DNA of 64,000 nt from Gemmatimonadota bacterium (GTDB lineage Bacteria; Gemmatimonadota; Gemmatimonadetes; Gemmatimonadales; Gemmatimonadaceae), in contig JACPFW010000026.1 of NCBI GenBank assembly GCA_016182795.1, forward strand, positions 11,905-75,904, in the 5' to 3' direction. Below, in pieces: positions 8,008-54,458 of this stretch; positions within the stretch are counted from its first letter, which is position 1, and the number at the start of each line of letters is the position of its first letter. Made by a program: the position numbers and the translations under genes. The notes beneath the pieces are model-generated. The model was not told the origin of the DNA and made no database searches. It saw nothing but the letters and a program-made list of their open reading frames with translations.

Positions 8008-8031
8008 CGAACAGGCAGCACCAACGCACGG

Positions 8032-8059: not shown

Positions 8060-8089
8060 TTCATGGGCACCCTGCCCCTTCCCCTGCAC

Positions 8090-8744: not shown

Positions 8745-8821
8745 CTACCTTCTACCTTCTACCTTCTACCATCTACCGTCTACCGTCTACCGTCTACCTT
8801 CTGCCGTCTACCTTCTGCCGT
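8745..8821. repeat. Tandem heptamer array, 11 x CT(A/G)CC(T/A/G)T
   Basis: ctacctt x3, ctaccat, ctaccgt x3, ctacctt, ctgccgt, ctacctt, ctgccgt, read contiguously. The array ends 3 nt before the ATG at 8825. Confidence 0.95.
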
Positions 8822-8824
8822 CCC

Positions 8825-30709: not shown

Positions 30710-31663
30710 ATGTCTGTCATTGCTGACGCGCACGACGCCACGACTATCACCGTGAGACAGCCGCAGCCCGAACACCTCCTCCGCGGACACCTCCTTCTTG
30801 CCACCGATGGCACCGCCAGCGCCGACGGCGCGGCGGGGCTCGTGGCGGAGTCGTGTCGGCGCGGCGCGGCGCAGGTCAGCGTGTTGGCGGTCTTTGAACC
30901 GGCGCCGATGCCCGTTCCCAGCGCCGATCCGTCGCTCGCCGCCATGACGACGATGAGCGGCGACACCGCGCTGCGCGACGAGTTCTTCGCGCGCGTGGAG
31001 CGGCAGGCGGAACGCTGCTTCGCGGGCTGTCCGCGCGTGGAGATCGAGCGGGTCGAGGGGTCGCCTGTGCGCGCCATCGTCGAAGCGGCGGCCACGATGG
31101 ACGCCGACCTGATCGTGACCGGCCTTCGCGTACACTCGCTGATGGACCGCCTCGTCGGCGACGAGACGGCGCTGCGCGTCACCCGGGCCACCGATCGCCC
31201 GGTCTTTGCCGTGGCGCCAAGTCTCACGCAGCTGCCGCGGCGGGCCGTGGTCGGCATCGACTTCTCCAAGGCGTCAATGCGCGCCGCGGCGGTCGCCGCC
31301 GGCCTGCTCGCCACCGGCGGCACGCTCACGCTGCTGCATGCCCTGCCGCGCTTCGACGCCACAGCGGTCAGTGAGGACGGCACCGACCTGCCGTTCGCGC
31401 GCGGCGTCACGGCGGCGCTCGACAGCCTGCGCGCGTCACTGGCCGCGTCCCATCCGGACATCACGGTTGCCATCGAGCGCCGCGACGGTGAGGCCGCCGA
31501 GGCCGTGATGAACTATGCCATCGCCGCCAAGGCCGACTTCGTCGCCGTCGGCCGCCACCGCCGCAGCGCCATCGCCCACGCCGTCCTCGGCAGTGTCGCC
31601 ACCACGCTGCTGCGCAAGGCGAAGTTGTCGGTGTTGGTGATGCCGCCGGTGGACAGCGATTGA
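30710..31663 (+). CDS. Tandem universal stress protein (two UspA domains)
   Basis: ATG 30710 is preceded by GGAG. Two repeats of the Usp pattern are present (...ADLIVTGLRVHS...; ...ADFVAVGRHRRSAIAHAVLGSVATTLLRKAKLSVLVMP). Confidence 0.8.
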   Translation: MSVIADAHDATTITVRQPQPEHLLRGHLLLATDGTASADGAAGLVAESCRRGAAQVSVLAVFEPAPMPVPSADPSLAAMTTMSGDTALRDEFFARVERQAERCFAGCPRVEIERVEGSPVRAIVEAAATMDADLIVTGLRVHSLMDRLVGDETALRVTRATDRPVFAVAPSLTQLPRRAVVGIDFSKASMRAAAVAAGLLATGGTLTLLHALPRFDATAVSEDGTDLPFARGVTAALDSLRASLAASHPDITVAIERRDGEAAEAVMNYAIAAKADFVAVGRHRRSAIAHAVLGSVATTLLRKAKLSVLVMPPVDSD

Positions 31664-31810
31664 GGATATGGACCTTGGATTGCGATTGCGGATCGCGATT
31701 CGTGATATCGATTAGCGATGAGGGGCGGCCGAATTGGCCGCCCCTCAATCGTTCATCGCAATCCTATATCGCAATCCCAAATCGCAATCCTGAGTCCAAA
31801 TCCCAAATCA
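31664..31810. repeat. About 147-bp imperfect palindrome of 13-nt words (ATCGCAATCCnnn) with a central perfect GC hairpin
   Basis: The left arm is ggatatggaccttggattgcgattgcggatcgcgattcgtgatatcgattagcgat. The centre is gaggggcggcc-gaatt-ggccgcccctc (31720-31746). The right arm is aatcgttcatcgcaatcctatatcgcaatcccaaatcgcaatcctgagtccaaatcccaaatc. The element fills the entire gap between the convergent genes. Confidence 0.9.
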
Positions 31811-33561: not shown

Positions 33562-33721
33562 AGCACATCTAGGTTATCGGGAAACGCCCCGCACCATCCA
33601 TCAGGTTGTGTCGGATTTTCCCTGAGGGATTACCCGACCACCCTTACTCTTTTCCCTTACAGAACAATTAAGAGACTTTAGTGCCCAGAGTCAACGAAGG
33701 CGAGCCCCTGTCGGCCCGCCT

Positions 33722-33776
33722 CTGTTGTCTTTCTGTTGTCTCTCTGTTGTCTGTCTGTTGTTTCTCTGTCGTTCCA
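33722..33776. repeat. Tandem 11-mer array x5 (CTGTTGTnTnT; on the minus strand AnAnACAACAG) abutting the tRNA-Lys 3' end
   Basis: ctgttgtcttt ctgttgtctct ctgttgtctgt ctgttgtttct ctgtcgttcca. The array ends at 33776 and the tRNA discriminator base is at 33777. Confidence 0.92.
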
Positions 33777-35386: not shown

Positions 35387-35583
35387 GCGGCAGACAGGCC
35401 TCTCTCGATCTGGCAGAAGTGCTGGCTGAGCACGGCACTGATCTCGCCGCGAAGTACTAATGCAGCAGGTTGTTGGACCACATGGCTTGGCTCGCCCGTC
35501 CATTCTTTGACTCACTCGGCGCGGCGCGGGGTACCAGACCGCTCTTCATGCGGAGCGCGAGCGCTGGTGCCGCGAAAGACAAA

Positions 35584-35607
35584 GGGCCCGGGCTTGCGCC
35601 CGGACCC
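35584..35607. terminator. Bidirectional terminator-like hairpin between convergent genes
   Basis: gggcccgggc-ttgc-gcccggaccc (9 of 10 bp paired), flanked by aaagacaaa upstream and tcgtcttt downstream. Confidence 0.55.
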
Positions 35608-35644
35608 TCGTCTTTAGCCTTCAAGCTAGCTCGATCTTCTGAGA

Positions 35645-38452
35645 CTACTTGATGATGTTCAGCGTGTAGGCCAAGGCGTTGACGTAGCCGATCGTGCCCG
35701 CGGCGTTGTAGCCAACCGCAATCACGTTCGTCGTATTCGTCGCCGTGAAGCCGAGCTGCGAGTACAGCGTGGCGCCGCTGATCGCGGCCGACCACGTGAA
35801 CGTACGCACCGCACCGTTGTCCGTCAGCACCGGCGTCGTCGCCGTGCCGATGAGGCGCATTTCGGTGCCCGCAGCGCCGCCGTTGTTGGCAGCCCAGAAC
35901 TCAACACGCGAGAACGGGTTGTTGTACGTGGCCGTCGGGCCCGTCGAAACAACACTGAGCGTCCCCGAAGCCGGGTTGGCCGTCGTCGCGGCAGTGGTGA
36001 CGCCGGACGAAATGTTGTTCGACGCGATGCTGTTGGTAACCGCCGGGAAGGTCGCCAGACCCGTCGGGGCGAACACGGCGAGCGCCGGCGAAACGGCCGG
36101 AGCGGCAGCCGCGGCACCCGTCACCAGCATGAGACCCTGGTTGGTCGCATTCGCTTCCACGGTGGCCAGCGGATAGAGCGTACCACCGAACTGCAGCGCA
36201 AGCGGCAGGTTGAACACCGCCGACACGGCGTAGTTCGTGTTGACGAAGGTCGCGGCATTGAAGCCGTTGACCGTCGTCGGGGTCGTGTTCGCAAAGCGGA
36301 CCGGCTGCGCCGACGGACCAACCACGAAGGTGCTAACACCACCGATCGCAGCGTAGTCGCCGGAGAACCAGTAGTTCGCGATATCGAGCGCGTCGTTCAG
36401 GAAGGCACTGCCGGTCCAGCCGATCGTCGAAACCGTGATCGGAGTGGAAACATTGCCGACCGTCAGCGCGCCGTTGTCGAGGACAATGGTACGCGCCGAA
36501 ACCGAGGCCGAGTTGCCGGCCGCGTCGAACGCCGTCGCGTTGAACGAGTAGTACGCGTCCGTCGTGAGAGCCGTAACCGCCGTCGAATACAGCGGGGCAG
36601 CCGCAACGACACCCGTCGCCGACAACACGCCAGCGGTGGTCGCAGCCGTGCCGTTCGCGTTGAGCGGGTTGTTCGTGCCCGCGCTGTTCGCCGTGCCAGC
36701 CACGCGCTGCGTGATCTGCATCGTAACCGGGGCCGTCGGGGCCATACCAGAGTTGCCGACCAGACCCGTGTCGTTCACCGTCACCACGAACTCACCAGCG
36801 ATCGTGGCCGTGCTCTTCTGCGCGTTCGCAGCAAGCGACGTCGCATCGTAGGCGATGGTCGGAGCCGCGCGGTCAACGCCGAACGGAACCGAGGCGGAGC
36901 CAGCAACCGGCAGGGCATAACCAGCCACCGCGGTCGGAGCGGCGCACGTGCCACCCGGGTTCGCCGTCTGCGTGTTACCAAGCACGTCGGCCGTGTAGAC
37001 GATACCGCAATAGCTCGCGTTCGTCGCCGAAGCGGCAAGCGTCGTCGGGTCGGCGATCGCCGCAGCCGTCTTCGCCGCAGTGTAGGTCGCACCAACGCGA
37101 ACGTTGTAGGTGATTGCGCCACCGATGCCAGCGTCAACGACCGTCGCGGCGATCGCGCCGTTCGGGTTGCCCGCCGCCGTCACGGTGTTGAGGCTCACCG
37201 CATCATTGATCCAGTTGCCGGTACGACCGTTGACCGCGAGGGCGGCGATGAGGCCGGCCGTCGGCGGAGCAACGTTGTCCCAGCGCAGGCCGGTCTGCGT
37301 GCCGATGATGCCGGCAGGCGTCGTGGCCGTGCCGGCCAGCGTCAGGTTGTCGCCGGCCGAGTTGGTCGCGGTAACGGTGACCACGTTCGGGAACGTGGTG
37401 ACGCAGCCAGCAGGCGACTGAAGGCCAGCCAGCGTGCCCGTGATCACGTAGACGTTGTCCGTCTTGGTCGTCGCGGTGCCGATAGCGCCAACTGCGCCGA
37501 CGCAGGTCGAGCCAGTCGCGGGATTGGCCGAAAGCGCGGCAGCAACCGTACCGATCGACGAGCCAGAGTACAGCACCGGAAGCGCGTTAACCGTGAGCGA
37601 GCCGTTGCCCGTCCAACGATAGCCGGTGCCGTCAACCGCCGACGTGCCACCGCTCGTCGTAATGGCAAAGCCGTCAACGTTAGCGAGCGTCAGGGTCTGC
37701 GTGACCGAGGCGCTGGCCGCCTGCGACGAACCGCTGGCGACGGTGTAAACCTTCGCCTGCAGCGTCGTGGCGCCGTTCAGCCAGGTCGGGACGCCCGTGG
37801 TGGCGTTGAACGCCGCCGTGTTGATCATGGCAACGATCTGCGGGAACGTCGTCTGCGCCGCAGCGGCCTCGTCGGCCGCATAACGGAGCGCGGCAGCCTG
37901 GGCCGCCGTGAACGTCTGCGAGTAGGCGACAACGCTTCCGAACAGCACTTCAACCTTGCTGATCGTCTGGTTGCCCGGGTTGACGTTGACCGTCACGTCG
38001 ATCGGGCCGGCGACGGCAGCCGGGTTGACCGTGCCGTTCAGGTTGCCCGAAGCGGTGATCGAGTTGATCGACACCGTCGCCGGGATCGTGGCGACCGGCG
38101 GCGACACGACGACTGTAGCGCAGCCCTTCTTGCCCGTATCAACCGTGGACGTCGCGCAAACGGCGATGCCCGGGTTGCCCGTGGCCGGAGCCGTGAAGAC
38201 ACCAGCGGACGTGATCGTGCCGGCCGAGGCCGTCCACGTCACCGTCGTCGCCAGGCCCGCGTCCGCGTTGACCGCGGCCGTGAACGTGATCGACTGACCA
38301 GTCGAGACCGTAGCCGTCGCCGGCGACACTTCGACCGAGTTGACCTTTGACTGCGTCGGCGGCGGCGTGTACTCCTGCACCGTCACCTTGTCGCCGCACG
38401 CTGCGAGCAACGCAGCGCCAACGACGAGAATCGTCTTACGAGAGAAGTTCAT
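35645..38452 (-). CDS. Large Thr/Ala/Gly/Val/Asn-rich surface lipoprotein with an N-terminal bacterial Ig-like (Big_2-type) domain; possible S-layer or adhesin protein
   Basis: ATG 38452 gives MNFSRKTILVVGAALLAACGD (lipobox). VNSVEVSPATATVSTGQSITFTAAVNADAGLATTVTWTASAGTITSAGVFTAPATG matches the Big_2 pattern. The remaining roughly 800 aa are low-complexity and beta-rich. The track start at 38647 is rejected. Confidence 0.7.
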   Translation of the reverse strand: MNFSRKTILVVGAALLAACGDKVTVQEYTPPPTQSKVNSVEVSPATATVSTGQSITFTAAVNADAGLATTVTWTASAGTITSAGVFTAPATGNPGIAVCATSTVDTGKKGCATVVVSPPVATIPATVSINSITASGNLNGTVNPAAVAGPIDVTVNVNPGNQTISKVEVLFGSVVAYSQTFTAAQAAALRYAADEAAAAQTTFPQIVAMINTAAFNATTGVPTWLNGATTLQAKVYTVASGSSQAASASVTQTLTLANVDGFAITTSGGTSAVDGTGYRWTGNGSLTVNALPVLYSGSSIGTVAAALSANPATGSTCVGAVGAIGTATTKTDNVYVITGTLAGLQSPAGCVTTFPNVVTVTATNSAGDNLTLAGTATTPAGIIGTQTGLRWDNVAPPTAGLIAALAVNGRTGNWINDAVSLNTVTAAGNPNGAIAATVVDAGIGGAITYNVRVGATYTAAKTAAAIADPTTLAASATNASYCGIVYTADVLGNTQTANPGGTCAAPTAVAGYALPVAGSASVPFGVDRAAPTIAYDATSLAANAQKSTATIAGEFVVTVNDTGLVGNSGMAPTAPVTMQITQRVAGTANSAGTNNPLNANGTAATTAGVLSATGVVAAAPLYSTAVTALTTDAYYSFNATAFDAAGNSASVSARTIVLDNGALTVGNVSTPITVSTIGWTGSAFLNDALDIANYWFSGDYAAIGGVSTFVVGPSAQPVRFANTTPTTVNGFNAATFVNTNYAVSAVFNLPLALQFGGTLYPLATVEANATNQGLMLVTGAAAAAPAVSPALAVFAPTGLATFPAVTNSIASNNISSGVTTAATTANPASGTLSVVSTGPTATYNNPFSRVEFWAANNGGAAGTEMRLIGTATTPVLTDNGAVRTFTWSAAISGATLYSQLGFTATNTTNVIAVGYNAAGTIGYVNALAYTLNIIK

Positions 38453-38792
38453 GGAACCCCCAGTGGAGTAAACTGCAAAAAACCATCGCGAAAACCTGCC
38501 CTTGCTCACGTGCAACGTCTCCATCCACGGTAAGACGTCCTGGCAAGGTAAAAACACACTGCTGGCCAATCTCGTGGAATATGACGACGGTGCGGACAAC
38601 TCGCAACCCCAATTGGGGTCGCGGCTTGGCCCGCTCCACCGACACATTTCCGTCGCCCAGACCGGCCAGCCACCCTTATAGTGGTGATCGGACCGGGAGC
38701 CAAAACCTACGACTCCCGAAAACTCCCGTCAAGCAAGTTGGCGGTAGACAGGCACAACGTAGGGACGAACAGCCTAGGCCTGGGTAACTGCT

Positions 38793-38909
38793 CGGAACGG
38801 GGAGGGGGCCGGGACTCAGGGACGGGTGAAGTGAGGGGGGACGGGCGAGGCGTTTCTCGGTCCCCCTCACGTCCCCCCTCGCCTAGTCTCGGCCCCCCTC
38901 CTCGTTCCG
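38793..38909. repeat. Copy 1 of a 117-127-bp G-tract/C-tract palindromic element (termini CGGAACGrGGAGGGGGGCCGGGACT ... AGTCyCGGCCCCCCTCCyCGTTCCG)
   Basis: cggaacggggagggggccgggact...agtctcggcccccctcctcgttccg read directly. The right arm overlaps the last 9 codons (including the stop) of rnhB. Confidence 0.9.
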
Positions 38910-39533
38910 AGCGCCGTTCGTCTCGGCGTTCCGCAGAATCCCCTCACAGAACTTGGGCCGATGATGCGCTGTCATCCCCCTCGCTCTCAGCGCACTCATA
39001 TGCACCGGCGTTCCGTACCCGGCGTTCTGCTCCCACCCGTACCCAGGGTGCCGCGCGGCGAGCGAACGCATCAGGCAATCGCGCGCCACCTTGGCCACAA
39101 TGCTCGCGCACGCAATTGAATAGATGCGCGAGTCGCCCCCCACGAAGGCACGGTGTGTCACCCCCAGCGTCTTGATGGGCTTGCCGTCCACCAGCACTTC
39201 ATCGGGATGTTCACGCAGGCGGCGCAGCGCACGGCGCATGGCGAGTGCCGTCGCCTGATAGATGTTGAGCGCCTCGATCTCGCGGACGCTTGCCGCCCCG
39301 AGCGCCACACACAACGCCGCACCGCGGATCTTCGCCGCGAGCCGTTCGCGCTGGGCGGCGCTCAGCTGCTTGGAGTCGGCGACGCCAGCGATGGCGCGGG
39401 CCTCGGGCGGCATGATGACGGCGCAAGCAAAGACGGGGCCCGCAAGCGGGCCCCGTCCGACTTCATCTACTCCGGCAATAAGCCGGGCGCCATCGGCGCG
39501 CAGCGAGCGCTCCACCGCGCTCCAGCGCGCCAT
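38883..39533 (-). CDS. rnhB: Ribonuclease HII
   Basis: IAGVDEVGRGPLAGPV...ADSKQLS...IVAKVARD...GYGT are the RNase HII catalytic motifs. The C-terminal ...ARNEEGGRD and the stop are encoded by the repeat element. Confidence 0.9.
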   Translation of the reverse strand: MARWSAVERSLRADGARLIAGVDEVGRGPLAGPVFACAVIMPPEARAIAGVADSKQLSAAQRERLAAKIRGAALCVALGAASVREIEALNIYQATALAMRRALRRLREHPDEVLVDGKPIKTLGVTHRAFVGGDSRIYSIACASIVAKVARDCLMRSLAARHPGYGWEQNAGYGTPVHMSALRARGMTAHHRPKFCEGILRNAETNGARNEEGGRD

Positions 39534-39539
39534 GCGCGA

Positions 39540-39920
39540 TTACGCCTGTTCCGCCGAGCCGGTGACCGGCACCGCGACACGCACCTTCTTTTCCTTGATG
39601 CGCGTGGCCTTGCCGGTGAGTTCGCGGAGATAGAACAGCTTGGCGCGGCGGACACGGCCGCGGCGCACGACGCTGATCGACTCGAGCATCGGCGAATGCA
39701 GCGGGAAGATGCGCTCGACGCCGACGCCGTTGCTGATCTTCCGCACGGTGAACGTGGCGCTGACGCCCGCTCCCTTGCGCGCGATCACGACGCCTTCGAA
39801 CGCCTGCACGCGCTCCTTGTCGCCTTCCTTCACCTTGACGTTCACGCGCACCGTGTCGCCGGCGCGGAACGGAGGAACTTCCTTGAGCCACTCTTTCTGC
39901 GTTTCCATGAAGACATGCAT
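39540..39920 (-). CDS. rplS: 50S ribosomal protein L19
   Basis: ...[35 protein letters not shown]...[22 protein letters not shown]...RRAKLFYLR. The start is ATG 39920 or ATG 39908. The track ORF start at 40178 translates the repeat element and is rejected. Confidence 0.9.
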
Positions 39921-40024
39921 ATGACGATTCCAGCGTGAGGAGGCGTTAGTCGAGCCTTGAAAGCTATTCGGAGCCTGGCCTATCGTCAAGCGCTGCAATT
40001 GCTTGGGGTTAGACAAAACGGCTA

Positions 40025-40141
40025 CGGAACGGGGAGGGGGGCCGGGACTAAGCGAGGGGGGACGGGAGGGGGAACGAGGTACGCCTCGCCCGTCCCACCT
40101 CACTTCACCCGTTCCTGAGTCCCGGCCCCCTCCTCGTTCCG
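40025..40141. repeat. Copy 2 of the G-tract/C-tract palindromic element, with an extra C-rich tail to about 40173
   Basis: cggaacggggaggggggccgggactaag...gagtcccggccccctcctcgttccg. It lies between the protease 3' end (40175) and the rplS start. Confidence 0.9.
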
Positions 40142-40174
40142 AGGCCTCCTCGCTCCCCGCCCGTCCCTCCTCGC

Positions 40175-41350
40175 TCAATACGCCGTGAACAGCAAGTGAT
40201 TATTCGCCGTCTTCGCGCTCGTCACTATCCCCTTGGTCGTCTCCGCGTACAGCGCGTCGCGCACCTGCTGCGCCGTCGCCGTCGGATTGCCCTGCAGATA
40301 GAGGGCGGCCACTCCGGCCACGTGCGGCGTCGCCATCGACGTGCCGCTGATGGTGTTGGTGGCCACGTCGCTCGTGTACCACGACGACGTGATACCCAGC
40401 CCCGGCGCGAACCAGTCGACGCAGTTGCCGTAGTTGGACCACGACGTCTTCCGGTCGCTGCTGTCCGTGGCACCGATGGTCATCGCCGTGCTCACGCGCG
40501 CCGGCGAGTACCGGCACGCGTCCTGCGCGACGCCCGCCTTGTTGCCGTTGCCGGCGGCGACGGCATACGCCACGCCGCTCGCGATCGAGTTGGACACGGC
40601 CTGGTCAAGCGCCGTCGACGCGCCGCCGCCAAGGCTCATGTTGGCCACCGCGGGCTTGGCGGCGTTGGCCGTCACCCAGTCGATGCCGGCGATCACCCCA
40701 GAGGTCGTGCCGCTCCCTGAGCAGTTGAGCACGCGCACGGCAACGAGGCTCACCGCCTTGGCCACGCCGTACGTCGCACCGCCCACCGTGCCGGCCACGT
40801 GCGTGCCGTGCCCGTTGCAGTCGATGCCGTTCTTGCCGTCGCCGATGGCGTCGTAGCCCACCGCCGCGCGCCCGCCGAACTCGCTGTGTGAGGTGCGAAT
40901 TCCGGTGTCGACGATGTACGCGTGCACTCCGCTGCCCGTCGCCGTGTACGTGTAGGAGCCGTCGAGCGGACGCGCGCGCTGGTCGATGCGATCGAGTCCC
41001 CACGTCGCGCCGGTCTGCGTCGTGAAGGCCGTCATCTCCTGGTCGCGCTCGACGTACGCCACCGACGGATCGCGCGCGAGGTCGGCGATCGCCGTCCCGC
41101 TGAACTCGCCGGAGAACCCCTTGAGCGCCGCGCCGTACGTGTGCGTCACACTGCCACCAAACCGCTGCGCGAGACCGACCGCCCTGCCGCGCGGATCGGC
41201 GACATCATCGGTGAAGACGACGATGTAATCAGCGCGGTCGGCAACGGACGCGACGCGAGTCCGGGCGACTGCCGATTCGGTCGGTGAGGATGCGTCGTTG
41301 GCGCAGGCGGCCGCCGCGAGCACGGCGACGGAAAGCACGATTCTCCGCAT
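40175..41350 (-). CDS. Secreted subtilisin-like serine protease (peptidase S8, proteinase K-like) with an I9 propeptide
   Basis: Lipobox/signal LAAAAC. The propeptide is YIVVF...[10 protein letters not shown]...VAYVERD. The catalytic triad contexts are YIVDTGI (Asp), GHGTHVAGT (His) and [12 protein letters not shown] (Ser). Confidence 0.9.
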
Positions 41351-41435
41351 TGGGGGGCTCCAGTGAGGGGAAATGGGAGGGGCGCGAGGGCCCTATTTTG
41401 GACACAATAGGAGACGACTGTGCGATGCACAAGAC

Positions 41436-41562
41436 CGGAACGAGGAGGGGGGCCGGGACTTGGGAACGGGCGAAGAGAGGCGGAACGGGGAGGGCGGTTA
41501 TCGCGTCCCCCTCCATCTCTCTCGGTCGTCGTTCCTTAGTCCCGGCCCCCCTCCCCGTTCCG
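41436..41562. repeat. Copy 3 of the G-tract/C-tract palindromic element
   Basis: cggaacgaggaggggggccgggact...agtcccggcccccctccccgttccg. The right arm overlaps the last 9 codons (including the stop) of trmD. Confidence 0.9.
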
Positions 41563-42204
41563 TTTCTTTGTGAGTCGTACGCCTTCACTCTTCCTCCACT
41601 TCTCAATCTCCGCATGGTGCCCACTCAGCAGCACATCCGGGACCATATGCCCGCGGAAATCGGGAGGGCGCGTGTAACTCGGCGCCGAGAGGCCGCGCCC
41701 GTAGAACGAGTCGCCACGCGCGCTGTCGTGGTCGTTCATCGCGCCGGGGAGTAGCCGCACCACGGCGTCCACAATGCACAGCGCCGCCGGCTCGCCGCCG
41801 GAGAGCACAAAGTCGCCGACGGACATTTCCTCGGTGGCCAGGTGATCGGCGACGCGCTGGTCGACATCCTTGTAATGGCCGCACAGCAGCGTGAGTTCAT
41901 CACCCGCCGCAAAACGCTCGGCGTCGGCATGCGAAAAGACCTTGCCGCGCGGCGAGAGGAGTACGATGGGCGCTTTGGCGCCAAGCGACTCGACGCACTC
42001 GAAGAACGGCCCGGGCTTCATCACCATGCCGGCGCCGCCGCCGTACGGATAGTCGTCGACGGTGCGGTGCTTGTCGTGCGTGTAGTCGCGCAGATCCACA
42101 ACATTGTACGTGACGCTGCCCGCTTCGCGCGCCTTGTCGGGAATGCTCAGCGACAGCGGCCCGGCGAAGAACTCGGGGAAGATCGTGACGATGTTGATCT
42201 TCAT
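41536..42204 (-). CDS. trmD: tRNA (guanine37-N1)-methyltransferase
   Basis: MKINIVTIFPEFF...DDYPYGGGAGMVM...LLCGHYKDVDQRV...SVGDFVLSGGE. The C-terminal ...KRNGEGGRD and the stop are encoded by the repeat element. Confidence 0.92.
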   Translation of the reverse strand: MKINIVTIFPEFFAGPLSLSIPDKAREAGSVTYNVVDLRDYTHDKHRTVDDYPYGGGAGMVMKPGPFFECVESLGAKAPIVLLSPRGKVFSHADAERFAAGDELTLLCGHYKDVDQRVADHLATEEMSVGDFVLSGGEPAALCIVDAVVRLLPGAMNDHDSARGDSFYGRGLSAPSYTRPPDFRGHMVPDVLLSGHHAEIEKWRKSEGVRLTKKRNGEGGRD

Positions 42205-42746
42205 TGGAGCAGTCCGTCGGGAACATCGAGCGTGATGACGCGCGCGTCGCGGTCGAACGCGACGACGAACGCATCGTTGAACGGCACGTCGCGCAGGCCG
42301 CGCGCGGTCTCGATCTCGAGCACGAGCCCCTGCGGCAGCTCGTACGAACCGCGCACCTCGCCGAGCGGCGCGCCCTGCGGATCGACGGCGCGCATGCCGG
42401 GGAGTTCGTGCACCCACACCTCATCATCGGCGGGCGGCTCGAGTTCATCCATCGGGACGAGCAGCGTGATGCCGCGCCACCGCTCGGCGGTGGTGCGGTC
42501 GACGACGCCTTCGAAGCGCACGAGGAGGCCGTCCTGAAAGTCGCGCGCGGTAGCGACAATCAGCTCGCGCGGAGTGCCGGACGCCGGGTCGGGGGCGAGA
42601 TCGCCAGCGGGCGTGCCCACCAAGACACGCGCGCCGGGCGCGAAGATCGCGTCCGGCGCGTCAGTCTGGAGCGCCACCACCACTTCGCCCTTGATGCCGT
42701 GGGCGCGACGAACGCGCCCGACGACGGCGGAGGAACCGCTGGTCAC
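42201..42746 (-). CDS. rimM: 16S rRNA processing protein RimM
   Basis: VGRVRRAHGIKGEVVV... is the N-terminal RimM motif, followed by a PRC-barrel-like C-terminus. It overlaps the trmD start by 4 nt. Confidence 0.85.
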   Translation of the reverse strand: MTSGSSAVVGRVRRAHGIKGEVVVALQTDAPDAIFAPGARVLVGTPAGDLAPDPASGTPRELIVATARDFQDGLLVRFEGVVDRTTAERWRGITLLVPMDELEPPADDEVWVHELPGMRAVDPQGAPLGEVRGSYELPQGLVLEIETARGLRDVPFNDAFVVAFDRDARVITLDVPDGLLQ

Positions 42747-42747: not shown

Positions 42748-43062
42748 CTACGCGTTGGTCTCCGAGACGGGGACCGCGGAGGCGGCGAGCTTGGCGGCCA
42801 GGCGCTGCTCGTGGCGGGCCTTGAGCACGCCCGCCTTGCGTAGCAGCGAGCGGACCGTGTCGGACGGCTGGGCGCCGTTGTTGAGCCAGTAGTTGGCGCG
42901 ATCGGTGTTCAGCGTCACCGCCTTCTCGCCCGTGCGGGGCGCGTACTGGCCGATGACTTCAATGAACTTGCCGTCCCGCGGCATGCGCGAGTCGGCGACG
43001 ACGATGCGGTACATCGGGGCCTTCTTGCGGCCCGCGCGGCGGAGACGAATGCAAACGGCCAT
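42748..43062 (-). CDS. rpsP: 30S ribosomal protein S16
   Basis: [45 protein letters not shown] 43062 is preceded by GGAG. Confidence 0.92.
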
Positions 43063-43366
43063 CGGAGGTACTCCAGAAATGCGGTAAGACGCTGCCACCT
43101 GGCTCATCGCGCCACCGGAATGTCCGGAGCGCACCTGGGGCCGACCCTAAAGGGGCGGCTAGCGCAGCGAGCCAAGAAAGTTATGCGAGGCCGGCGCGGG
43201 ACTCAAGTGATAGCGAACAAAGAATTTGCTGGCCGAAGTGTTCACGAAAAGACGAGCCGATATGGGTGCCGTCGCAGATAGCGGCGTGCTCGCCCTTGCG
43301 GTGCGGTTCTTTTGGGGCAATCTTGGTGGTCCCGAATAAATACCGAAGCACACCTAGGAGGCTGGT

Positions 43367-43837
43367 ATGTCGAGCACGACGTTCATGTCCCCGGAAGCCG
43401 CGCTGGAACACTGGCAGGGTCATCGCCGCCTCACGCGGCGCGTGATCGAGGCATTTCCCGAGGACCAGCTGTTCTCGTTCTCCGTGGGCGGGATGCGCAG
43501 CTTTGGAGAGATGTGCAATGAGCTGCTCGCCATGGCGGTGCCGATGACGGAGGGCACGGTGTCTGAGGCATGGGGATCGTACACGCCCGGCAAGGCCACG
43601 TCGAAGTCAGCGCTACTCGCGGCGTGGGACGCTGACACGGCAAAACTCAGCGCGCTGTGGCCCAAGATTCCCGCCGCGCGGTTCGCCGACACGGTGACGG
43701 CGTTCGACGCGTACACGGGGAAGCTGCACGATCTCTTCCTTTACGTGATCGACAACGAGATCCACCATCGCGGGCAGGGGTACGTGTACCTGCGCGCGCT
43801 GGGCGTTGAACCGCCGCCGTTCTATGAGCGCGGCTAA
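43367..43837 (+). CDS. DinB-family (four-helix-bundle, metal-dependent) protein
   Basis: ALEHWQGHRRLT...NEIHHRGQGYVYLRALGVEPPPFY is the DinB_2-type His triad pattern. There is a strong AGGAGG upstream of the ATG. Confidence 0.7.
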   Translation: MSSTTFMSPEAALEHWQGHRRLTRRVIEAFPEDQLFSFSVGGMRSFGEMCNELLAMAVPMTEGTVSEAWGSYTPGKATSKSALLAAWDADTAKLSALWPKIPAARFADTVTAFDAYTGKLHDLFLYVIDNEIHHRGQGYVYLRALGVEPPPFYERG

Positions 43838-43867
43838 GGCGCGCTGCGCCGTGCCGGCCGCGGCGCG

Positions 43868-44503
43868 TTAGCGCCGCCGCATCGCACCCGGGTGCGCCTT
43901 CACGTACGCCGCGAAGGCGTAGCCGGTGGTCGTGCCGGGCTGAGGTTGCAGGTCGGTGAGCCCGTTGTGCATCACAACGGCAAGCTGCACCCAGTCCTTG
44001 CTGCGAAAATGCGCCTCGACGCCGAGTCCGGCGACCAGCGACAGCTCGAACGGACGGATGGCGTCGTACTCGGTGCCGCGCCCGCCATTGGTGCTCAGGC
44101 GTACACCGGCACTGGCGCCGCCGATCAGGACGGGGCGCACCCACGTGCCGACGCGGCGCGGCGCGAGCGGCGTGTACTGCAGTAGCAGCGGCACCTGCAG
44201 AAAGCCGATGGCGTAGCGCGCACCATCGTCGCCCTTCAGGTCGAAGACGGTCTGCACTTCGGCGTGAAGCGAGCGCGTGAGGGAGCGACGCGCGAACAGC
44301 CCGACGTAGGGCGACGTGCCGTTGCCGCTGGCCGACGTGAAGCCCTCAGGTTGCCCGGGGAACGACTGGGTCAGCCCGCTGGCGGCGATGCCGAGGATGG
44401 GGCCGAACTGAAGGCGCGAGGCGAAGGGAGTGGACTGCGGTGCTTGGGCGTGCAGCGCGACGGAGGAGCACAGGATGAACCCGAGTGTGATCAACCGTCG
44501 CAT
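43868..44503 (-). CDS. Outer-membrane beta-barrel protein (small porin-family barrel)
   Basis: MRRLITLGFILCSSVALHAQ is the signal. Alternating beta segments are present. ATG 44503 is preceded by GGAG and lies 11 nt after the ffh stop. Confidence 0.6.
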   Translation of the reverse strand: MRRLITLGFILCSSVALHAQAPQSTPFASRLQFGPILGIAASGLTQSFPGQPEGFTSASGNGTSPYVGLFARRSLTRSLHAEVQTVFDLKGDDGARYAIGFLQVPLLLQYTPLAPRRVGTWVRPVLIGGASAGVRLSTNGGRGTEYDAIRPFELSLVAGLGVEAHFRSKDWVQLAVVMHNGLTDLQPQPGTTTGYAFAAYVKAHPGAMRRR

Positions 44504-44514: not shown

Positions 44515-45834
44515 TCACCTCATTCCAGGAAACTGCGGTCGTCCCCCGCCCTTCATCGACTTCATCATCTTCTGCATGCCGCGGAACTGCTCGAGCAGCT
44601 TGTTGACTTCGCTGATCGGGCGGCCGCTGCCCTTGGCGATGCGCGCGCGGCGCGAGCCGTTGAGCAGGTCGGGCTGCTTGCGCTCTTCGAGGGTCATGCT
44701 GAGCACGATGGCCTCGAGATGCTTCATCCGCTTGGGATCGGTGTTCACCTGCTTCAGCATCTTGGCGTTGACGCCGGGGAGGAGCTTGAGGATCCCCTCC
44801 ATGGGCCCAAGGCGCTGAATCTGCTTCATGGCGGCGAGGAAATCGCCGAGGTCCATCCCTTCCTTGCGGACCTTCTTGTCGAGGCGCTTGGCCTCTTCGG
44901 CGTCGATGGCGCCCTGCGCCTTCTCCACGAGGGTGAGGACGTCGCCCTGCTGGAGAATGCGCCCGGCCATACGGTCGGGGTGGAACTCCTCGAGCGCGTC
45001 GCTCTTTTCGCCGACACCGATGTACTTGATGGGCTTCTTGGTGACGCCGTAGATGCTGAGCGCGGCGCCGCCGCGGGCGTCGCCATCCATCTTGGTGAGG
45101 ATCACGCCAGTGACGCCGAGCGCGCTGTCGAAGCCCTGCGCGATCTTCACGGCGTCCTGGCCGGTCATGCCGTCGGCGACGAGAAGGATTTCGTCGGGGC
45201 GCACGGCCTCCTTGAGGCGCGCGAGTTCGCCCATCATCTCGTCGTCGATCTGCAGTCGGCCGGCGGTATCGATGAGAACCACGCGGTCGCGCTCGCGGCG
45301 CGACTGGTCGAGTCCGGCGCGCGCGATCTTCACCACGTCCGTCGTCGAGCGGTCGGCGTAGACGGGGATGTCGAGATCCTTGCCGAGCGTCTCGAGCTGA
45401 TCGATGGCGGCGGGGCGATAGACGTCGGCGGCGATGAGGCGCACCTGGCGCCCTTCGCCCTTGAGCCTGCGCGCGAGCTTGGCGGCGGTGGTCGTCTTGC
45501 CGGAGCCCTGGAGGCCGACCATCAGCACCACGGTGGGCGGCACGGACGACAGCTTGAGCCCTTCCTTGCGCTCGCCGAGCATGGCGGTGAGTTCGTCATA
45601 GACGATCTTGACGAGCTGCTGCGCGGGCGAGACGGTGCGAATCTGTGAGACACCAACGGCCTTCTTCTCGACGCGCTCGAGGAACTCGCGCGTGAGCTGG
45701 AAGTTGACGTCGGCCTCGAGGAGGACGCGGCGGACTTCGCGGAGGCCGTCCTTGATGTCGGCTTCGGTGAGAACGCCGCGGCCGCGAAGCTTCGCGAAGG
45801 TGTTTTCGAGTTTGTCGGAGAGTTCCTGGAACAT
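44515..45834 (-). CDS. ffh: Signal recognition particle protein
   Basis: MFQELSDKLENTFAKLRGRG...GLQGSGKTTTAAKLA...DTAGRL..., followed by a Met-rich M domain (GMQKMMKSMKGG). Confidence 0.95.
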   Translation of the reverse strand: MFQELSDKLENTFAKLRGRGVLTEADIKDGLREVRRVLLEADVNFQLTREFLERVEKKAVGVSQIRTVSPAQQLVKIVYDELTAMLGERKEGLKLSSVPPTVVLMVGLQGSGKTTTAAKLARRLKGEGRQVRLIAADVYRPAAIDQLETLGKDLDIPVYADRSTTDVVKIARAGLDQSRRERDRVVLIDTAGRLQIDDEMMGELARLKEAVRPDEILLVADGMTGQDAVKIAQGFDSALGVTGVILTKMDGDARGGAALSIYGVTKKPIKYIGVGEKSDALEEFHPDRMAGRILQQGDVLTLVEKAQGAIDAEEAKRLDKKVRKEGMDLGDFLAAMKQIQRLGPMEGILKLLPGVNAKMLKQVNTDPKRMKHLEAIVLSMTLEERKQPDLLNGSRRARIAKGSGRPISEVNKLLEQFRGMQKMMKSMKGGGRPQFPGMR

Positions 45835-45888: not shown

Positions 45889-46052
45889 GGACACTGAATT
45901 CACGGAGGGCACGGAGGACACGGAGATCACGGAGGACGGCAACTTCTTGGGGGAACAACGAACACCACGCGGGGCATTGCGCGGCGCGCGCAGTTCCTCC
46001 AAGAAGTTGTAGTCCTCCGTGTCCTCCGTGTCCTCCGTGAATTCTGTGTCCT
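45889..46052. repeat. 164-bp imperfect palindrome with arms made of 9-mer tandem units (CACGGAGGA x4 / TCCTCCGTG x3)
   Basis: ggacactgaattc CACGGAGGG CACGGAGGA CACGGAGAT CACGGAGGA cggcaacttcttgg ... ccaagaagttgtag TCCTCCGTG x3 aattctgtgtcc. It lies in the divergent ffh/lon intergenic region. Confidence 0.92.
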
Positions 46053-46112: not shown

Positions 46113-48638
46113 GTGACCGTGCCCGGGGCCTCCTCACCCACTGACTCCGCCCGACTCGAGCGACCGCTCTTGGTGCTGCGGTCGACGGCGGTCTTCCCGC
46201 GCGGCACGGTGGCGGTGCAGATGGGCGCGCCGGAGAACGTCGCGCTGCTCACCGCGCGCCCGGAGCCCGACCTCGAGGTGATTGTCGCGGTGGCGCCGGT
46301 GCGCGACGCGGCCGGCGAACCGGCGGGTCTGGAGGGGCGCATTGGCGTGCTGGCGCGCGTGGTGTCGCGCGCAGCGGTGCCCGGCGACACGCTGCAGATC
46401 ACGCTCGAAGGACTGGCCCGTGTGCGCATCACGACCGTCGCGCGTCGCGGCGCGCTGACCTTTGCGAGCGCCGAGTCGGTGAGCGAGAGCGCGGCTGATG
46501 TCCCGGGTCTGCGCATGCTGCTGGTGCAGTTGGCCGACGCCGCGGACCGGCTGGTGGAGACCAACGAGACCACGCCGCCGGAACTGTCGGCGCTGGTGCG
46601 GCTCAATGCGGCCAACCCGGGCTACGCGGCCGACGTTGTTGCCGCGCGCGGGCCGTTCCGCGCCGCCGACAAGGACGAAGTGTTGCAGCGGCTCGACGTC
46701 TCCGACCGCGTGACGTACGTGCTGGCGCGCCTCGAAAAGGAGCTCACCCGCTCGGCGGTGCTCGAGGACGTACGCACGCAGACCGACGCGAACATCGAGC
46801 GGCATCATCGCGAGTTCTACCTGCGGCAGCAGCTGCGCGCGATCCAGGCGGAACTGGGCGAGGGCGACCCGCAGGACGGCGAGGTGGGCGAGCTGCTGCG
46901 GCAAATCGAGGAAGCGCCGCTGCCGCCGACCGTCGCCGCCGAGGCACGGCGCGAAGTGGCGCGCCTGCGCGGGCTGTCGAGCGCGTCGAGCGAGTATCAG
47001 GTGCTGCGCAATTATCTCGAGTGGGTGCTGGCGCTCCCGTGGGGGCGCAGCGGCGACGTCACCGACATTGCGCTCGACCGCGTGGAGGCGGCACTCGATG
47101 ACCGGCACTGGGGGCTGCGCGAGGCGAAGGACCGCATTCTCGAGCATCTGGCGGTGCACAAGCTGCGCGGCGGTCACGCGCCGGGGCCGATCCTCTGCTT
47201 CGTGGGACCGCCGGGCACAGGCAAGACGTCGCTGGGCGAGGCGATTGCGGCGGCGATCGGCCGCAAGTTCTACCGCATCTCGGTGGGCGGCGTGCGCGAC
47301 GAAGCCGAGATCCGCGGACATCGCCGCACGTACGTGGGCTCGCTCCCCGGCCTGCTGGTGCAGGCGTTGCGCCGCGTCGGCGTGAGCGACCCGGTGTTCC
47401 TGATTGACGAGATCGACAAGATGGCCGCCGGCGGCCCGGTGGGCGATCCGGCGGCGGCGATGCTCGAAGTGCTCGATCCGTCGCAGAACGCGTCGTTCGT
47501 GGATCACTTCCTGAATCTGCCGGTCGATCTGTCGTCGGTGCTGTTCATCGCGACGGCCAACAACCTGTTCGACATTCCCGTTGCGCTGCGCGATCGCCTC
47601 GAAGTGATCCGCATTGCGGGCTACACGATCGAGGAAAAGGTCGAGATCGCCTGGCGCTACCTGCTGCCGCGGCTGCTCGACGAGCACGGCATCTCCGACC
47701 TCGACCTGCAGTTCACCGACGAGGCGCTGGGCTTTTTGGCGAGCGGCTACTCGCGCGAGGCGGGGCTGCGCAACTTCGAGCGCAATCTGGCCGCGCTCAT
47801 GCGCAAGCGCGCCCGTCGCAAAGCCGATGGCGAGCTAGGGGCGTGGGTGGTGGACCAGGCGCGCATCGAAGAAGTGCTCGGCCCGCCGCGCTACGCGGAC
47901 GAGGCCGCCGAGCAGCGGCCCGAGATTGGGGCCGTGACCGGGCTCGCGTGGACGGCGGCCGGCGGTGAACTGATGACCATCGAAGTGCTGCAGATGGACG
48001 GCCGCGGACGCCTGACGGTGACGGGTCAGCTGGGCGACGTCATGCGTGAATCTGTGGACGCCGCGTGCTCGTATGTACGGTCACGCGCGCGCACGCTGCG
48101 TCTGCGCGACCCCGAGTTCGTGAGCACTGACTTGCACATCCACTTCCCCGCCGCATCGGTACCGAAGGACGGCCCCAGCGCCGGCGTCGCCGTGACCTTG
48201 GCGATCGCCAGCGCGATGAGCCGACGCAAGGTACGCCGCGACGTGGCCGTCACGGGGGAGATTTCGCTGCGCGGCAAGGTGCGCGAAGTGGGCGGCGTAA
48301 AGGAGAAGGTGCTCGCCGCCTACCGCAGCGGTCTGCGCGAAGTGATGCTCCCGGCGGCGAACGAAAAGGACCTGCGCGAACTGCCCGACGAAGTGCGCGC
48401 GCAGGTGCGGTTCACGTTCGTGCACACGCTGGACGAGGCGATCGAACGCGTGCTGCTTCCCGCGCAGCCGCTCGGCTTTGCGGACGATTTACCGCTCTTC
48501 GAAGGGGGCGATGGCGGACGTCAGATGGCGGATGGCGGATGGCGGCCGGCGGATGGCGGACCTCGCGTCGAGGAGCGGCCATTACCGCCTGCCGCGAGGC
48601 CCGCAGACGGGCCCGACGCGGCTGACGGTCCGCGCTGA
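46113..48638 (+). CDS. lon: ATP-dependent Lon protease (LonA) with an unusual C-terminal extension of about 60 aa
   Basis: The LON N-domain is followed by AAA+ (GPPGTGKTSLGEAIA, FLIDEIDK) and the protease domain (PKDGPSAGVAVTLAIASA ... K). The tail GGDGGRQMADGGWRPADGG... is translated from the heptamer array. Confidence 0.92.
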   Translation: MTVPGASSPTDSARLERPLLVLRSTAVFPRGTVAVQMGAPENVALLTARPEPDLEVIVAVAPVRDAAGEPAGLEGRIGVLARVVSRAAVPGDTLQITLEGLARVRITTVARRGALTFASAESVSESAADVPGLRMLLVQLADAADRLVETNETTPPELSALVRLNAANPGYAADVVAARGPFRAADKDEVLQRLDVSDRVTYVLARLEKELTRSAVLEDVRTQTDANIERHHREFYLRQQLRAIQAELGEGDPQDGEVGELLRQIEEAPLPPTVAAEARREVARLRGLSSASSEYQVLRNYLEWVLALPWGRSGDVTDIALDRVEAALDDRHWGLREAKDRILEHLAVHKLRGGHAPGPILCFVGPPGTGKTSLGEAIAAAIGRKFYRISVGGVRDEAEIRGHRRTYVGSLPGLLVQALRRVGVSDPVFLIDEIDKMAAGGPVGDPAAAMLEVLDPSQNASFVDHFLNLPVDLSSVLFIATANNLFDIPVALRDRLEVIRIAGYTIEEKVEIAWRYLLPRLLDEHGISDLDLQFTDEALGFLASGYSREAGLRNFERNLAALMRKRARRKADGELGAWVVDQARIEEVLGPPRYADEAAEQRPEIGAVTGLAWTAAGGELMTIEVLQMDGRGRLTVTGQLGDVMRESVDAACSYVRSRARTLRLRDPEFVSTDLHIHFPAASVPKDGPSAGVAVTLAIASAMSRRKVRRDVAVTGEISLRGKVREVGGVKEKVLAAYRSGLREVMLPAANEKDLRELPDEVRAQVRFTFVHTLDEAIERVLLPAQPLGFADDLPLFEGGDGGRQMADGGWRPADGGPRVEERPLPPAARPADGPDAADGPR
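48510..48565. repeat. Tandem heptamer array (GATGGCG x5 plus 3 degenerate units), the reverse-complement word of the array at 24534-24561
   Basis: gatggcg gacgtca gatggcg gatggcg gatggcg gccggcg gatggcg gacctcg. It lies inside the 3' extension of the lon ORF. Confidence 0.92.
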
Positions 48639-50473: not shown

Positions 50474-50531
50474 AAGAGAAACAACAGAGAAACAACAGAG
50501 AAACAACAGAAAAACAACAGAGAGACAACAG
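50474..50531. repeat. Tandem 11-mer array x5 (ACAACAGAGAA type), the same word family as 33722-33776
   Basis: ACAACAG recurs at 50481, 50492, 50503, 50514 and 50525, an exact 11-nt period. The array begins 1 nt after the stop (TAG 50471-50473) of the DUF445 gene. Confidence 0.92.
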
Positions 50532-53556: not shown

Positions 53557-54366
53557 TCCGTCATCCGACTTGCGCGCAGTGTCGTTCCCTGCCTCTTGCT
53601 CTGCACTTCAGCTTGTGCTGTCTCGACGCAGCAGGAAGTCGAGATCGGCACCAACTACGCCTCGCAGATTGCCAAGGAACTGCCCCTCATTCAGGACGCC
53701 GAGGTCAACCGGTACATCACGACGCTCGGCCTGTCGCTGGCCCGTGTCGCCGACCAGCGAAATCTCGACTGGCACTTCCACGTTGTCGATAGCAAAGAGG
53801 TAAATGCTTTCGCCGTCCCCGGGGGCTACATCTACGTCAATCGCGGACTGATCGAACGCGCCACCAATATGTCGCAGGTCGCCGGGGTGCTCGGCCACGA
53901 AATAGGCCACGTCACCCGCCGGCACAGCGTCAAGCAGATGCAGAAGGCCCAGGGGACGAACATCGGCGCCACCCTGCTCTGCACACTGACGGCGGCGTGC
54001 AACTCGGGGCTCGCGCAAACCGCCGCGCAGATTGGCGCCAGCGCCGCGTTTGCGAAGTTCAGTCGGACCGACGAGGCCGAGGCTGACGACGAAGGACTGC
54101 GCTACGTGGTGAAGGCCGGGATCGACCCCAACGGCATCCCCGAGATGTTCGAGATCCTGGAGAAAGAGCGGAAGGAGAAGCCGACGTCGATGGACCTGTG
54201 GTTCGCGTCGCACCCAATGGAGGAATCACGCATCGCCGACACGCGGGCCGCGATCGCCAAGCTGCCGCCTGACCAGCTGAAGGGACTGGTGAAGGACACG
54301 AAGGAGTTTCAGGCGTTCAAGAAGCGGGTGATGGCACTGCCGGCGCCGCCCCCGACGAAGAAGTGA
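53548..54366 (+). CDS. M48-family zinc metalloprotease lipoprotein
   Basis: Lipobox LLCTSAC. NAFAVPGGYIYVNRGL...GVLGHEIGHVTRRH (HExxH)...EAEADDEG. Confidence 0.88.
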   Translation: MGHSVIRLARSVVPCLLLCTSACAVSTQQEVEIGTNYASQIAKELPLIQDAEVNRYITTLGLSLARVADQRNLDWHFHVVDSKEVNAFAVPGGYIYVNRGLIERATNMSQVAGVLGHEIGHVTRRHSVKQMQKAQGTNIGATLLCTLTAACNSGLAQTAAQIGASAAFAKFSRTDEAEADDEGLRYVVKAGIDPNGIPEMFEILEKERKEKPTSMDLWFASHPMEESRIADTRAAIAKLPPDQLKGLVKDTKEFQAFKKRVMALPAPPPTKK

Positions 54367-54456
54367 GGGTAGAAGCTAGAAGGTAGAGGGTGGATGGTTG
54401 AAGGTAGAGACTTCCTACCATCTGCCATCCACCTTCTACCATCGGCCTTCCGCCAC
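54366..54456. repeat. Palindromic pair of heptamer arrays (6 x AAGGTAG type, 7-nt spacer, 6 x CTACCAT type)
   Basis: agggtag aagctag aaggtag agggtgg atggttg aaggtag / ctaccat ctgccat ccacctt ctaccat cggcctt ccgccac. The pair fills the whole gap between convergent genes (stops at 54364-54366 and 54459-54461). Confidence 0.92.
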
Positions 54457-54458
54457 CA

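Follow-up and report, generated by a model that had tools for sequence, protein, structure and literature searches.

ERIC (IRU) and Correia (NEMIS) elements are imperfect palindromes of 100-155 nt that are co-transcribed with the genes flanking them. As RNA they form long hairpins that influence mRNA stability and serve as RNase III substrates, and their terminal inverted repeats with a TA target duplication are like those of miniature inverted-repeat transposable elements (MITEs). Among repetitive extragenic palindromes (REPs), proximity to stop codons has been reported for the GTAG REPs (PMC3733652), and documented cases from other bacteria include REPs that supply stop codons and REPs at most 15 nt from a stop that have an effect on translation (PMC3733652; PMC12306157). 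REPINs have been described mainly in Gammaproteobacteria (PMC3116915; PMC5581495). Our literature searches found no report of REPs, REP-associated tyrosine transposases (RAYTs) or palindromic repeats in Gemmatimonadota. Here we describe three related palindromes in a 64,000-nt stretch of a Gemmatimonadaceae genome (contig JACPFW010000026.1, positions 11,905 to 75,904; hereafter the window). We consider it probable, at roughly 0.6, that they are a lineage-specific subtype of a family of non-coding imperfect palindromes in Gemmatimonadaceae that resembles REPs, bacterial interspersed mosaic elements (BIMEs) and REPINs of Proteobacteria.

Three Related Palindromes in the Window

The elements were picked out by a reading made from the sequence alone, without database searches, and its coordinates and lengths proved correct. 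In the order of transcription, copy 3 (41436..41562, 127 nt) follows trmD in what we call slot A, copy 2 (40025..40141, 117 nt) occupies slot B between the stop of an S8 protease gene and the promoter-like site of rplS, and copy 1 (38793..38909, 117 nt) follows rnhB in slot C; none is assigned a strand. All three are imperfect palindromes with the ends CGGAACGRGGAGGGGG(G)CCGGGACT in common. Copies 1 and 2 are inverted relative to each other, being reverse complements with 92% identity over 119 nt. Copy 3 is 79-82% identical to both; its ends are the same and its interior, which has an internal CGGAACGGGGAGGG at 41481, is different yet self-complementary. The shared inverted termini of about 25 nt were likewise recovered: CGGAACGRGGAGGGGGGCCGGGACT occurs with at most one mismatch at four of the six ends (expectation 0.00 from 100 shuffles), and the remaining two, the left end of copy 1 and the right end of copy 2, differ solely in a G run that is shorter by one G.

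Every copy is predicted to fold into a single long hairpin on either strand, with a minimum free energy (MFE) of -82.1 to -99.4 kcal/mol and a z-score of -6.4 to -10.5. None of 200 shuffles was as stable, which bears out the palindromic architecture and strong hairpin potential first claimed for the copies. A covariance model of the repeat family (R1, built from 16 members) scores copy 1 at 93-98 bits (MFE -82/-89 kcal/mol), copy 2 at 100-105 bits (-82/-85 kcal/mol) and copy 3 at 82-92 bits (-98/-99 kcal/mol, z -9 to -10.5). Across the 64 kb, this model and motif searches return just these three copies (82-105 bits), the next best match scoring 27 bits. An alignment of 16 copies yields one long consensus hairpin. 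At 13 of its 40 consensus pairs, double-sided changes keep the pair in at least one sequence, as where TAGAGGC/GCCTCTA stands against GCCGGGAC/GTCCCGGC, and the differences between subtypes are mirrored in both arms.

Could the copies be MITEs, that is, deletion derivatives of an insertion sequence (IS) with a DDE transposase and matching terminal inverted repeats? Conserved inverted ends of about 25 nt, small size and a lack of coding capacity would all suit such an origin. However, the self-complementarity spans the whole element and the arm changes are compensatory, the window holds no transposase, and the flanks of the three copies, when compared, have no direct repeat in common. Target-site duplications, which the sequence-only reading had proposed to look for, are thus absent from all three flanks. 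We rejected the MITE reading on this ground and consider it very unlikely. Of the label "MITE/REP-like" originally given to the copies, the first half is not supported in its strict sense, there being no target-site duplication and no known parent IS, while the second stands, the wider family being dispersed at 80-91% identity.

The copies have no coding capacity. Stop-free translations of the elements matched nothing in a protein database at E<=1, and the junk open reading frame (ORF) earlier attributed to the repeats is indeed the translation of copy 1. In Rfam, just two tRNAs among the window sequences reach the gathering score and the copies match no family. Nothing in 15 related loci reaches that score either, and a permissive E-value brought up merely generic miRNA-precursor hairpin models, far under threshold.

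With G-runs of 3-6 in their G-rich arms, the elements might instead act mainly through G-quadruplexes. The claim that one half on each strand has quadruplex potential survives for two of the six G-rich arms, in which a canonical motif (four G3+ runs, loops of 1-7 nt) is present; the other four lack it. Moreover, every G-arm faces a fully complementary C-arm 10-60 nt away, and the hairpin that competes with a quadruplex is worth -82 to -99 kcal/mol. An action mainly of this kind is therefore highly improbable.

Ends of Genes and of Transcription Units

The genes around the copies all lie on the minus strand: ffh (44515-45834), rpsP (start at about 43062-43134, end at 42748), rimM (42201-42746), trmD (41536-42204; product of 222 aa), the S8 protease gene, which includes an I9 propeptide (40175-41350), rplS (39540-39920), rnhB (38883-39533) and a gene for a surface protein of 1000 aa (35645-38647). 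The TrmD of the window is 100% identical to a protein that NCBI assigns to a Gemmatimonadetes bacterium; look-ups by exact sequence of this TrmD and of the S8 protease gave no record. The copies had been described as lying between genes, which is accurate for copy 2 and needs correction for copies 1 and 3. The final 27 nt of trmD (41536..41562, minus strand) fall inside copy 3 and those of rnhB (38883..38909, minus strand) inside copy 1, in an identical frame relative to the element. The last eight codons and the stop of each gene (RNGEGGRD* in trmD, RNEEGGRD* in rnhB) are encoded by the end of the element, with the stop at +27 from that end. A partial arm rich in G, GCGAGGAGGGACGGGCGGGGAGCGAGGAGG (40143..40178, minus strand), separates the S8 stop codon from copy 2 and is probably the relic of an older copy; the arrangement of a partial G-piece plus a complete element recurs in L204, L047 and L037 (related loci are cited by number).

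A promoter-like sequence of predicted function stands on the minus strand downstream of each copy. TTGACG-N17-TAGCTT (39961..39989), just downstream of copy 2, would serve rplS-rnhB, and TTGACG-N17-TAGGTT (38704..38732), downstream of copy 1, would serve the surface-protein gene. Upstream of the S8 gene and downstream of copy 3 there is a weaker candidate, CTTGTG-N18-TATTGT (41404..41433), and a similar sequence is seen in L004. The rplS motif, GCTTGAC-N17-TAnCTT, is invariant in eight genomes, whichever palindrome precedes it and also where none does; that of the surface-protein gene, CTTGAC-N17-TAGsTT, is invariant in seven, palindrome or not. Lying between a stop codon and the next promoter-like site, the copies stand at the close of three transcription units in a row, namely those of rpsP-rimM-trmD, of the S8 protease gene and of rplS-rnhB.

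What would a hairpin do in this position? In mRNA, each copy would form a G:C-rich stem of about 55 bp directly 3' of a stop codon. Such a stem may end or insulate the unit, terminate or attenuate read-through and keep 3'-5' exonucleases off the message upstream, and it is a plausible substrate of RNase III. The outcome would be that rpsP-rimM-trmD, the inserted S8 gene and rplS-rnhB are expressed separately. These RNA-level roles are conjecture, in part because the hairpins are not followed by a U-tract. A terminator scan of the window called none of the three copies and saw no T-run 3' of the stems; a canonical short terminator is present elsewhere in the window (35582-35609). Copy 2 has the opposite orientation to copies 1 and 3, so orientation relative to transcription is variable, which points to a property that is symmetric, be it the hairpin or the pair of ends, rather than to an RNA motif with a direction.

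Downstream of the promoter-like site of slot C, the leader of the surface-protein gene (38594-38705, minus strand) contains GGCTCCCGGTCCGATCACCACTATAAGnGTGGCTGGCCGGTCTGGGC followed by a CCCCAATTGGGG palindrome. The leader is invariant across seven genomes, even where a Fic gene lies upstream (L258), and has no match in Rfam; it may be an undescribed element of the 5' untranslated region.

A Wider Family Dispersed in Gemmatimonadota

The copies belong to a wider family, 95-140 nt long with the ends CGGAACGRGGAGGGGG...CCCCCTCCYCGTTCCG, that is dispersed in related Gemmatimonadota. We ran a two-ended gapped pattern, GGAACGRGGASGG-N68-98-CCSTCCYCGTTCC, on GTDB representative genomes and JGI metagenomes, and about 25 among the 256 matches listed are Gemmatimonadota elements. 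These are found on at least four contigs of the genome that supplied L001 and in several other metagenome-assembled genomes (MAGs) and metagenome contigs. They are placed between convergent or tandem genes, and their neighbours are accC, hslV, hslU and genes for an SRPBCC protein, a GFO/IDH/MocA oxidoreductase, a MacB-type permease, PAP2 and Big_2 proteins; in L005, a short contig, the neighbour is ftsK. A long ORF has its stop between -9 and +27 of an element end in 13 of 20 elements; often it abuts the first C of the element (TGA or TAG directly before CGGAACG) or is the element's own TAG at +27. Two home-made gene callers based on GC3 were unreliable near the repeats and a third, based on codon usage, became usable after manual correction alone, so these statements of context rest on Pfam-checked ORFs and on the gene calls supplied with the loci.

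In the 138-nt subtype marked by TAGAGGC, copies are 80-91% identical across unrelated loci and genomes. This requires copying between distant sites. In L047, a complete copy is nested between both arms of an older one.

Which gene might mobilise such repeats? None of the approximately 52 ORFs of the window encodes a transposase, integrase, Y1/RAYT or DUF559 protein by Pfam and tblastn, in agreement with the sequence-only reading, which had seen no transposase or RAYT-like gene there. The search for a mobilising gene was extended to about 1.6 Mb of loci, with provisional tblastn queries for IS200 TnpA and an E. coli RAYT and with a regular expression for HxH...YxxNP, and it too found neither a RAYT nor another candidate. 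With queries of this kind, and with a partner gene expected in one copy per genome, this negative is weak either way.

The Same Slots in Related Genomes

Comparison of the trmD region across eleven related contigs revealed palindromes at the same three positions in at least six related genomes, which makes the slots an old feature of the gene cluster. Their occupants are varied. L004 and L257 carry three 140-nt palindromes with CGGAACGRGGAGGGGG ends. In these, TAGAGGC takes the place of the GCCGGGAC of the window, and the same motif opens a further hairpin nested inside. The TAGAGGC type is also found in L069 and L001, truncated in part, and slot C of L001 has shrunk to CGGAACGG|CCGTTCCG plus a C-arm. 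L204, from which the protease gene is missing, has elements of a 115-nt subtype, one between trmD and rplS and one after rnhB, and both carry an identical, odd partial 5' duplication at what is a TAGAGGC-type locus. Four copies of a very different G-arm/C-arm palindrome (GAGGAGGGGTGCAGGGG...) occupy L007 and L008, and L259 has two copies of a further type that consists of GGTTCGGGGTGGCGGGTGCAAGTG units. No palindrome is present at the slots in L258, nor in L006 and L260, which are more distant.

Copies within one genome are more alike than same-slot copies of different genomes, and the occupants of one slot can be unrelated between genomes. Vertical inheritance of one insertion per slot does not predict such a pattern, which calls for copying within the genome by gene conversion or re-insertion. 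We propose that the copies have been propagated or homogenised within the genome by a hairpin-dependent copying mechanism. Candidates would be single-strand transposition of the RAYT or IS200-IS605 type, or gene conversion between copies. Gene 3' ends or existing terminal hairpins would be the preferred landing sites, and the same slots would be re-occupied by whichever family is active in the lineage.

According to the sequence-only reading, a motif confined to these three loci, or one that alignment with relatives placed as an ancient conserved feature of the operon, would tell against a dispersed element. The outcome is divided. The slots are kept and the exact subtype occurs nowhere else in the searches; yet the occupants vary and the wider family is dispersed, which argues against a simply inherited operon feature.

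Other Hairpins and the Possibility of a Host Function

Further long and very stable palindromes of unrelated sequence occur in spacers of the window, in each of which a purine-rich 5' arm composed of short repeats has its complement in the 3' arm, and most begin right at a stop codon. They are located after a fasciclin gene (20258-20430), between convergent usp and response-regulator genes (31660-31810), between convergent M48 peptidase and nucleoside phosphorylase genes (54364-54460), in the divergent lon/ffh spacer, where the arms are (CACGGAGGA)n (45897-46052), and at 8008-8089. The lon/ffh hairpin has orthologous copies in L007 and L204 and none in L001 and L004, and in relatives such hairpins are found after ffh and after the surface-protein gene. 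Short tandem arrays that are strand-asymmetric and have a period of 7-14 nt, for example (TTCTACC)n and (TTCTGTGCCC)n, are also frequent in the spacers (8743-8822, 20354-20429, 33720-33769, 48510-48561 and 50475-50531). The lon/ffh spacer of relatives carries other heptamer arrays, (CTGCCGT)n in L001 and (CATCTGC)n in L004.

Since other gene ends are hairpin-capped as well, the three copies form a multi-copy subset of a general tendency. This habit keeps alive an explanation without mobility, in which the copies are host-encoded terminal hairpins of this gene cluster that act as terminators, insulators or RNA-stability elements. Slippage and repair templated by the hairpin would make them change rapidly, and gene conversion over 1.2-1.4 kb would keep them alike. 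The filling of the same three slots in at least six genomes would be expected, as would the restriction of the window, L007 and L259 types to the cluster, the unique long hairpins after other stops in relatives and in the window (20258-20430, 31660-31810, 54364-54460), and the abundance of short tandem arrays. However, such hairpins should not recur as TAGAGGC-type copies with 80-91% identity at unrelated loci of different genomes, nor should their orientation vary, as it does in the inverted copy 2. The genomes that have no palindrome at the slots (L258, L006 and L260) keep the same promoters, which indicates that the hairpins are dispensable. We regard non-mobile host hairpins as unlikely.

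Several observations weigh against a REP-like repeat family, our preferred reading. The window subtype was not met beyond the window in GTDB representatives, in JGI metagenomes (its exact 23-mer has 0 matches in either) or by protein search; it is, as far as such sequence searches indicate, rare, and we infer its dispersal in its own genome by analogy. The three copies in the 64 kb all sit inside 2.8 kb, leaving the other 61 kb without any, and the L007 and L259 types, within their 14-18-kb loci, were found in the cluster alone. The hairpins have no U-tract 3' of them, and the negative search for a mobilising gene counts, weakly, on the same side. The genome that bears the copies also bears unique long purine-arm/pyrimidine-arm hairpins at other gene ends, and long terminal hairpins may be a host feature needing no mobility. 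Finally, local gene conversion among neighbouring hairpins, without transposition, could be the source of the likeness within genomes.

The trmD-rplS Gap

The gap between trmD and rplS (window 39921-41535) is a variable insertion spot. In the window, L001, L004, L007, L069, L204, L258 and L259 it is empty or contains the S8 protease gene, an ORF of 408 aa that is weakly AAA-like, or the two together, and the genes inserted there are mostly bounded by palindromes. Remnants of the start and the end of the 408-aa ORF persist in L001 and L069, and a small protein tree did not separate gain from loss of the S8 gene in L204. At another locus, L037 (3207-3960), an ORF for a 23S-rRNA-IVP-like four-helix-bundle protein (PF05635) lies between a half element, the G-arm, and a complete element; this layout of half element, ORF and full element matches that of the 408-aa ORF in L007.

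Do the palindromes then act as attC-like recombination sites of a cassette system? Sites of that kind have the core consensus RYYYAAC...GTTRRRY and would explain the coming and going of the S8 gene and the 408-aa ORF, given a gap whose content varies among relatives and whose inserts usually have palindromic borders. The ends of our elements, ACGGAAC...GTTCCGT, nevertheless do not fit this core, which they match at five of seven positions per end. The window holds no integrase, the 408-aa ORF of L258 has no palindromes beside it, and members of the family stand singly after ordinary housekeeping genes. For the mismatch at the core site, the lack of an integrase in the window and the single dispersed copies, we rejected this reading, which is extremely unlikely.

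One junction in the region merits separate mention. L005 (1790-1937) and L004 (10643-10790) have an identical TrmD and diverge exactly at the end of the element; beyond it the sequence of L005, a short contig, is that of the ftsK 3' end, with this gene on the opposite strand. Either the contig reflects a true rearrangement at the repeat or the repeat led to a chimeric assembly, and under both readings a copy adjoins ftsK in the L005 population. Upstream in the cluster, the gap between ffh and rpsP (43367-44503) holds a DinB-family gene on the plus strand and a weak outer membrane protein beta-barrel gene on the minus strand. The same gap is a spacer of about 300 nt alone in L001 and L004 and has one 210-aa gene in L007.

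Sphingomonadales Repeats and DUF559

Among the gapped-pattern matches listed, the majority come from a Sphingomonadales repeat family that is abundant and about 100-130 nt long (most of L009-L247, for example L015 4185-4312), and whose consensus is (AAAT)TCCTCCCCGGAACGGGGAGGGGGACC...GGTCCCCCTCCCCGTTCCGGGGAGGA(ATTT). Like the window elements, these repeats have the 15-nt ends GGAACGGGGAGGGGG/CCCCCTCCCCGTTCC, are palindromic with a variable, paired interior and lie directly after stop codons. Peculiar to them are local mini-hairpins formed by an additional outer pairing, TCCTCCCC...GGGGAGGA, internal GGTGGAGGGG/CCCCTCCACC stems, two side hairpins with a variable centre, their occurrence in a different phylum and an association with DUF559. 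In L248, a repeat begins right after the pntA stop, and its end, GGGGAGGA, is Shine-Dalgarno-like for the next gene. The repeat families of Sphingomonas parapaucimobilis occupy 101-189 places each in a plasmid collection, mostly on the replicons of this strain. We found no relevant literature for the motif, or for REP, RAYT or palindromic repeats in Sphingomonas.

Genes for DUF559 (PF04480), a Vsr-like nuclease, lie in hairpin repeats or are bracketed by them in L248 (1501-1948), L249-L256, L219, L233, L234, L237 and L240; at several loci the gene is in the central loop of a Sphingomonadales repeat or adjoins a copy. When about 1,475 repeat-near ORFs were clustered, merely conserved neighbourhoods (imuA-imuB-dnaE2) emerged together with DUF559 in seven loci, all of Sphingomonadales type. 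A literature search found no paper linking DUF559 to repeats.

The window copies might accordingly be read as short, non-autonomous members of a hairpin-repeat system in which a DUF559 gene within one copy, and not a RAYT, would maintain or move the repeats. The common 15-nt end would then reflect common ancestry, and the copies would fall into a cross-phylum class of hairpin repeats with this PD-(D/E)xK nuclease, encoded in a master copy, as partner. It speaks for this that the Sphingomonadales family also has GGAACGGGGAGGGGG at both ends, that S. parapaucimobilis has three divergent DUF559 genes, each of them within or flanked by copies of an abundant hairpin-repeat family of its own, and that similar bracketing is seen in Sphingobium, Novosphingobium, Azospirillum, Deinococcus, Picosynechococcus and Sinorhizobium. 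Yet neither the window nor the Gemmatimonadota loci retrieved contain such a gene, and the local CTCCCC-loop-GGGGAG mini-hairpin seen at the Sphingomonadales ends is missing from those of Gemmatimonadota. Because the 15-mer in common is rich in G and was selected for by the search pattern, convergence or chance is a plausible source of the likeness to the window elements. We consider the DUF559 reading improbable, both for the origin of the copies and for the proposed class. If it were true, the pairing of DUF559 and repeats would be a second, undescribed nuclease-repeat partnership analogous to that of RAYT and REPIN; DUF559 genes sitting inside palindromic families in the manner of RAYTs could give a function to a widespread domain.

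Consequences for Annotation and Genome Evolution

The repeats create junk ORFs in annotation and change the C-termini and stops of conserved genes, trmD and rnhB both ending in the element-encoded RN[GE]EGGRD. They are also likely points of breakage or chimerism in MAG assemblies, as where L005 joins trmD to ftsK at a copy. A REP-like family, if that is what they represent, would be an addition to what is recorded for Gemmatimonadota, a little-studied phylum. The refilling of the same intergenic slots by different families in different lineages is relevant to the question whether repeats of this kind act as selfish elements, have been domesticated, or both. In the otherwise universal linkage of trmD and rplS, the copies mark the boundaries of a hypervariable insertion spot.

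Comparison with Known Hairpin Elements

How do the window copies compare with hairpin elements already described? Like intrinsic (Rho-independent) terminators, they place a G:C-rich hairpin at the end of a unit and upstream of the next promoter; unlike them, they have stems of about 55 bp instead of 5-15 bp and no U-tract follows. We know of no sequence similarity between ERIC/IRU or Correia (NEMIS) elements and the window copies, which also differ from both in having no target-site duplication.

The resemblance is closer to REPINs and their RAYTs (PMC3116915; PMC5581495), which are hairpins of about 100 nt with ends that are inverted copies of a conserved module, an interior that is less conserved but paired, and populations that are lineage-specific and vertically inherited. 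Our copies too are palindromes whose inverted conserved end modules fold as a hairpin, with no target-site duplication. As for the RAYT that defines the REPIN-RAYT system, a single-copy gene flanked by the repeats, none turned up in the window by Pfam or in the window and the 1.6 Mb of loci by the weak tblastn search. With REP/BIME of Enterobacteria and the GTAG/CGTC REP superfamilies (PMC3733652), they share the form of non-coding extragenic palindromes at gene 3' ends, near or overlapping stops and sometimes supplying them, with species- or lineage-specific sequence, clusters, nested or tandem mosaics and no target-site duplication. The units are larger, at 95-140 nt compared with 20-40 nt in REP/BIME, and the window copies start with CGGAACG in place of a GTAG/CGTC head, although GTAG does occur internally in the TAGAGGC subtype of relatives. 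REP-like palindromes of this sort are a known kind of genomic punctuation, as the E. coli REPs exemplify, and not a new system.

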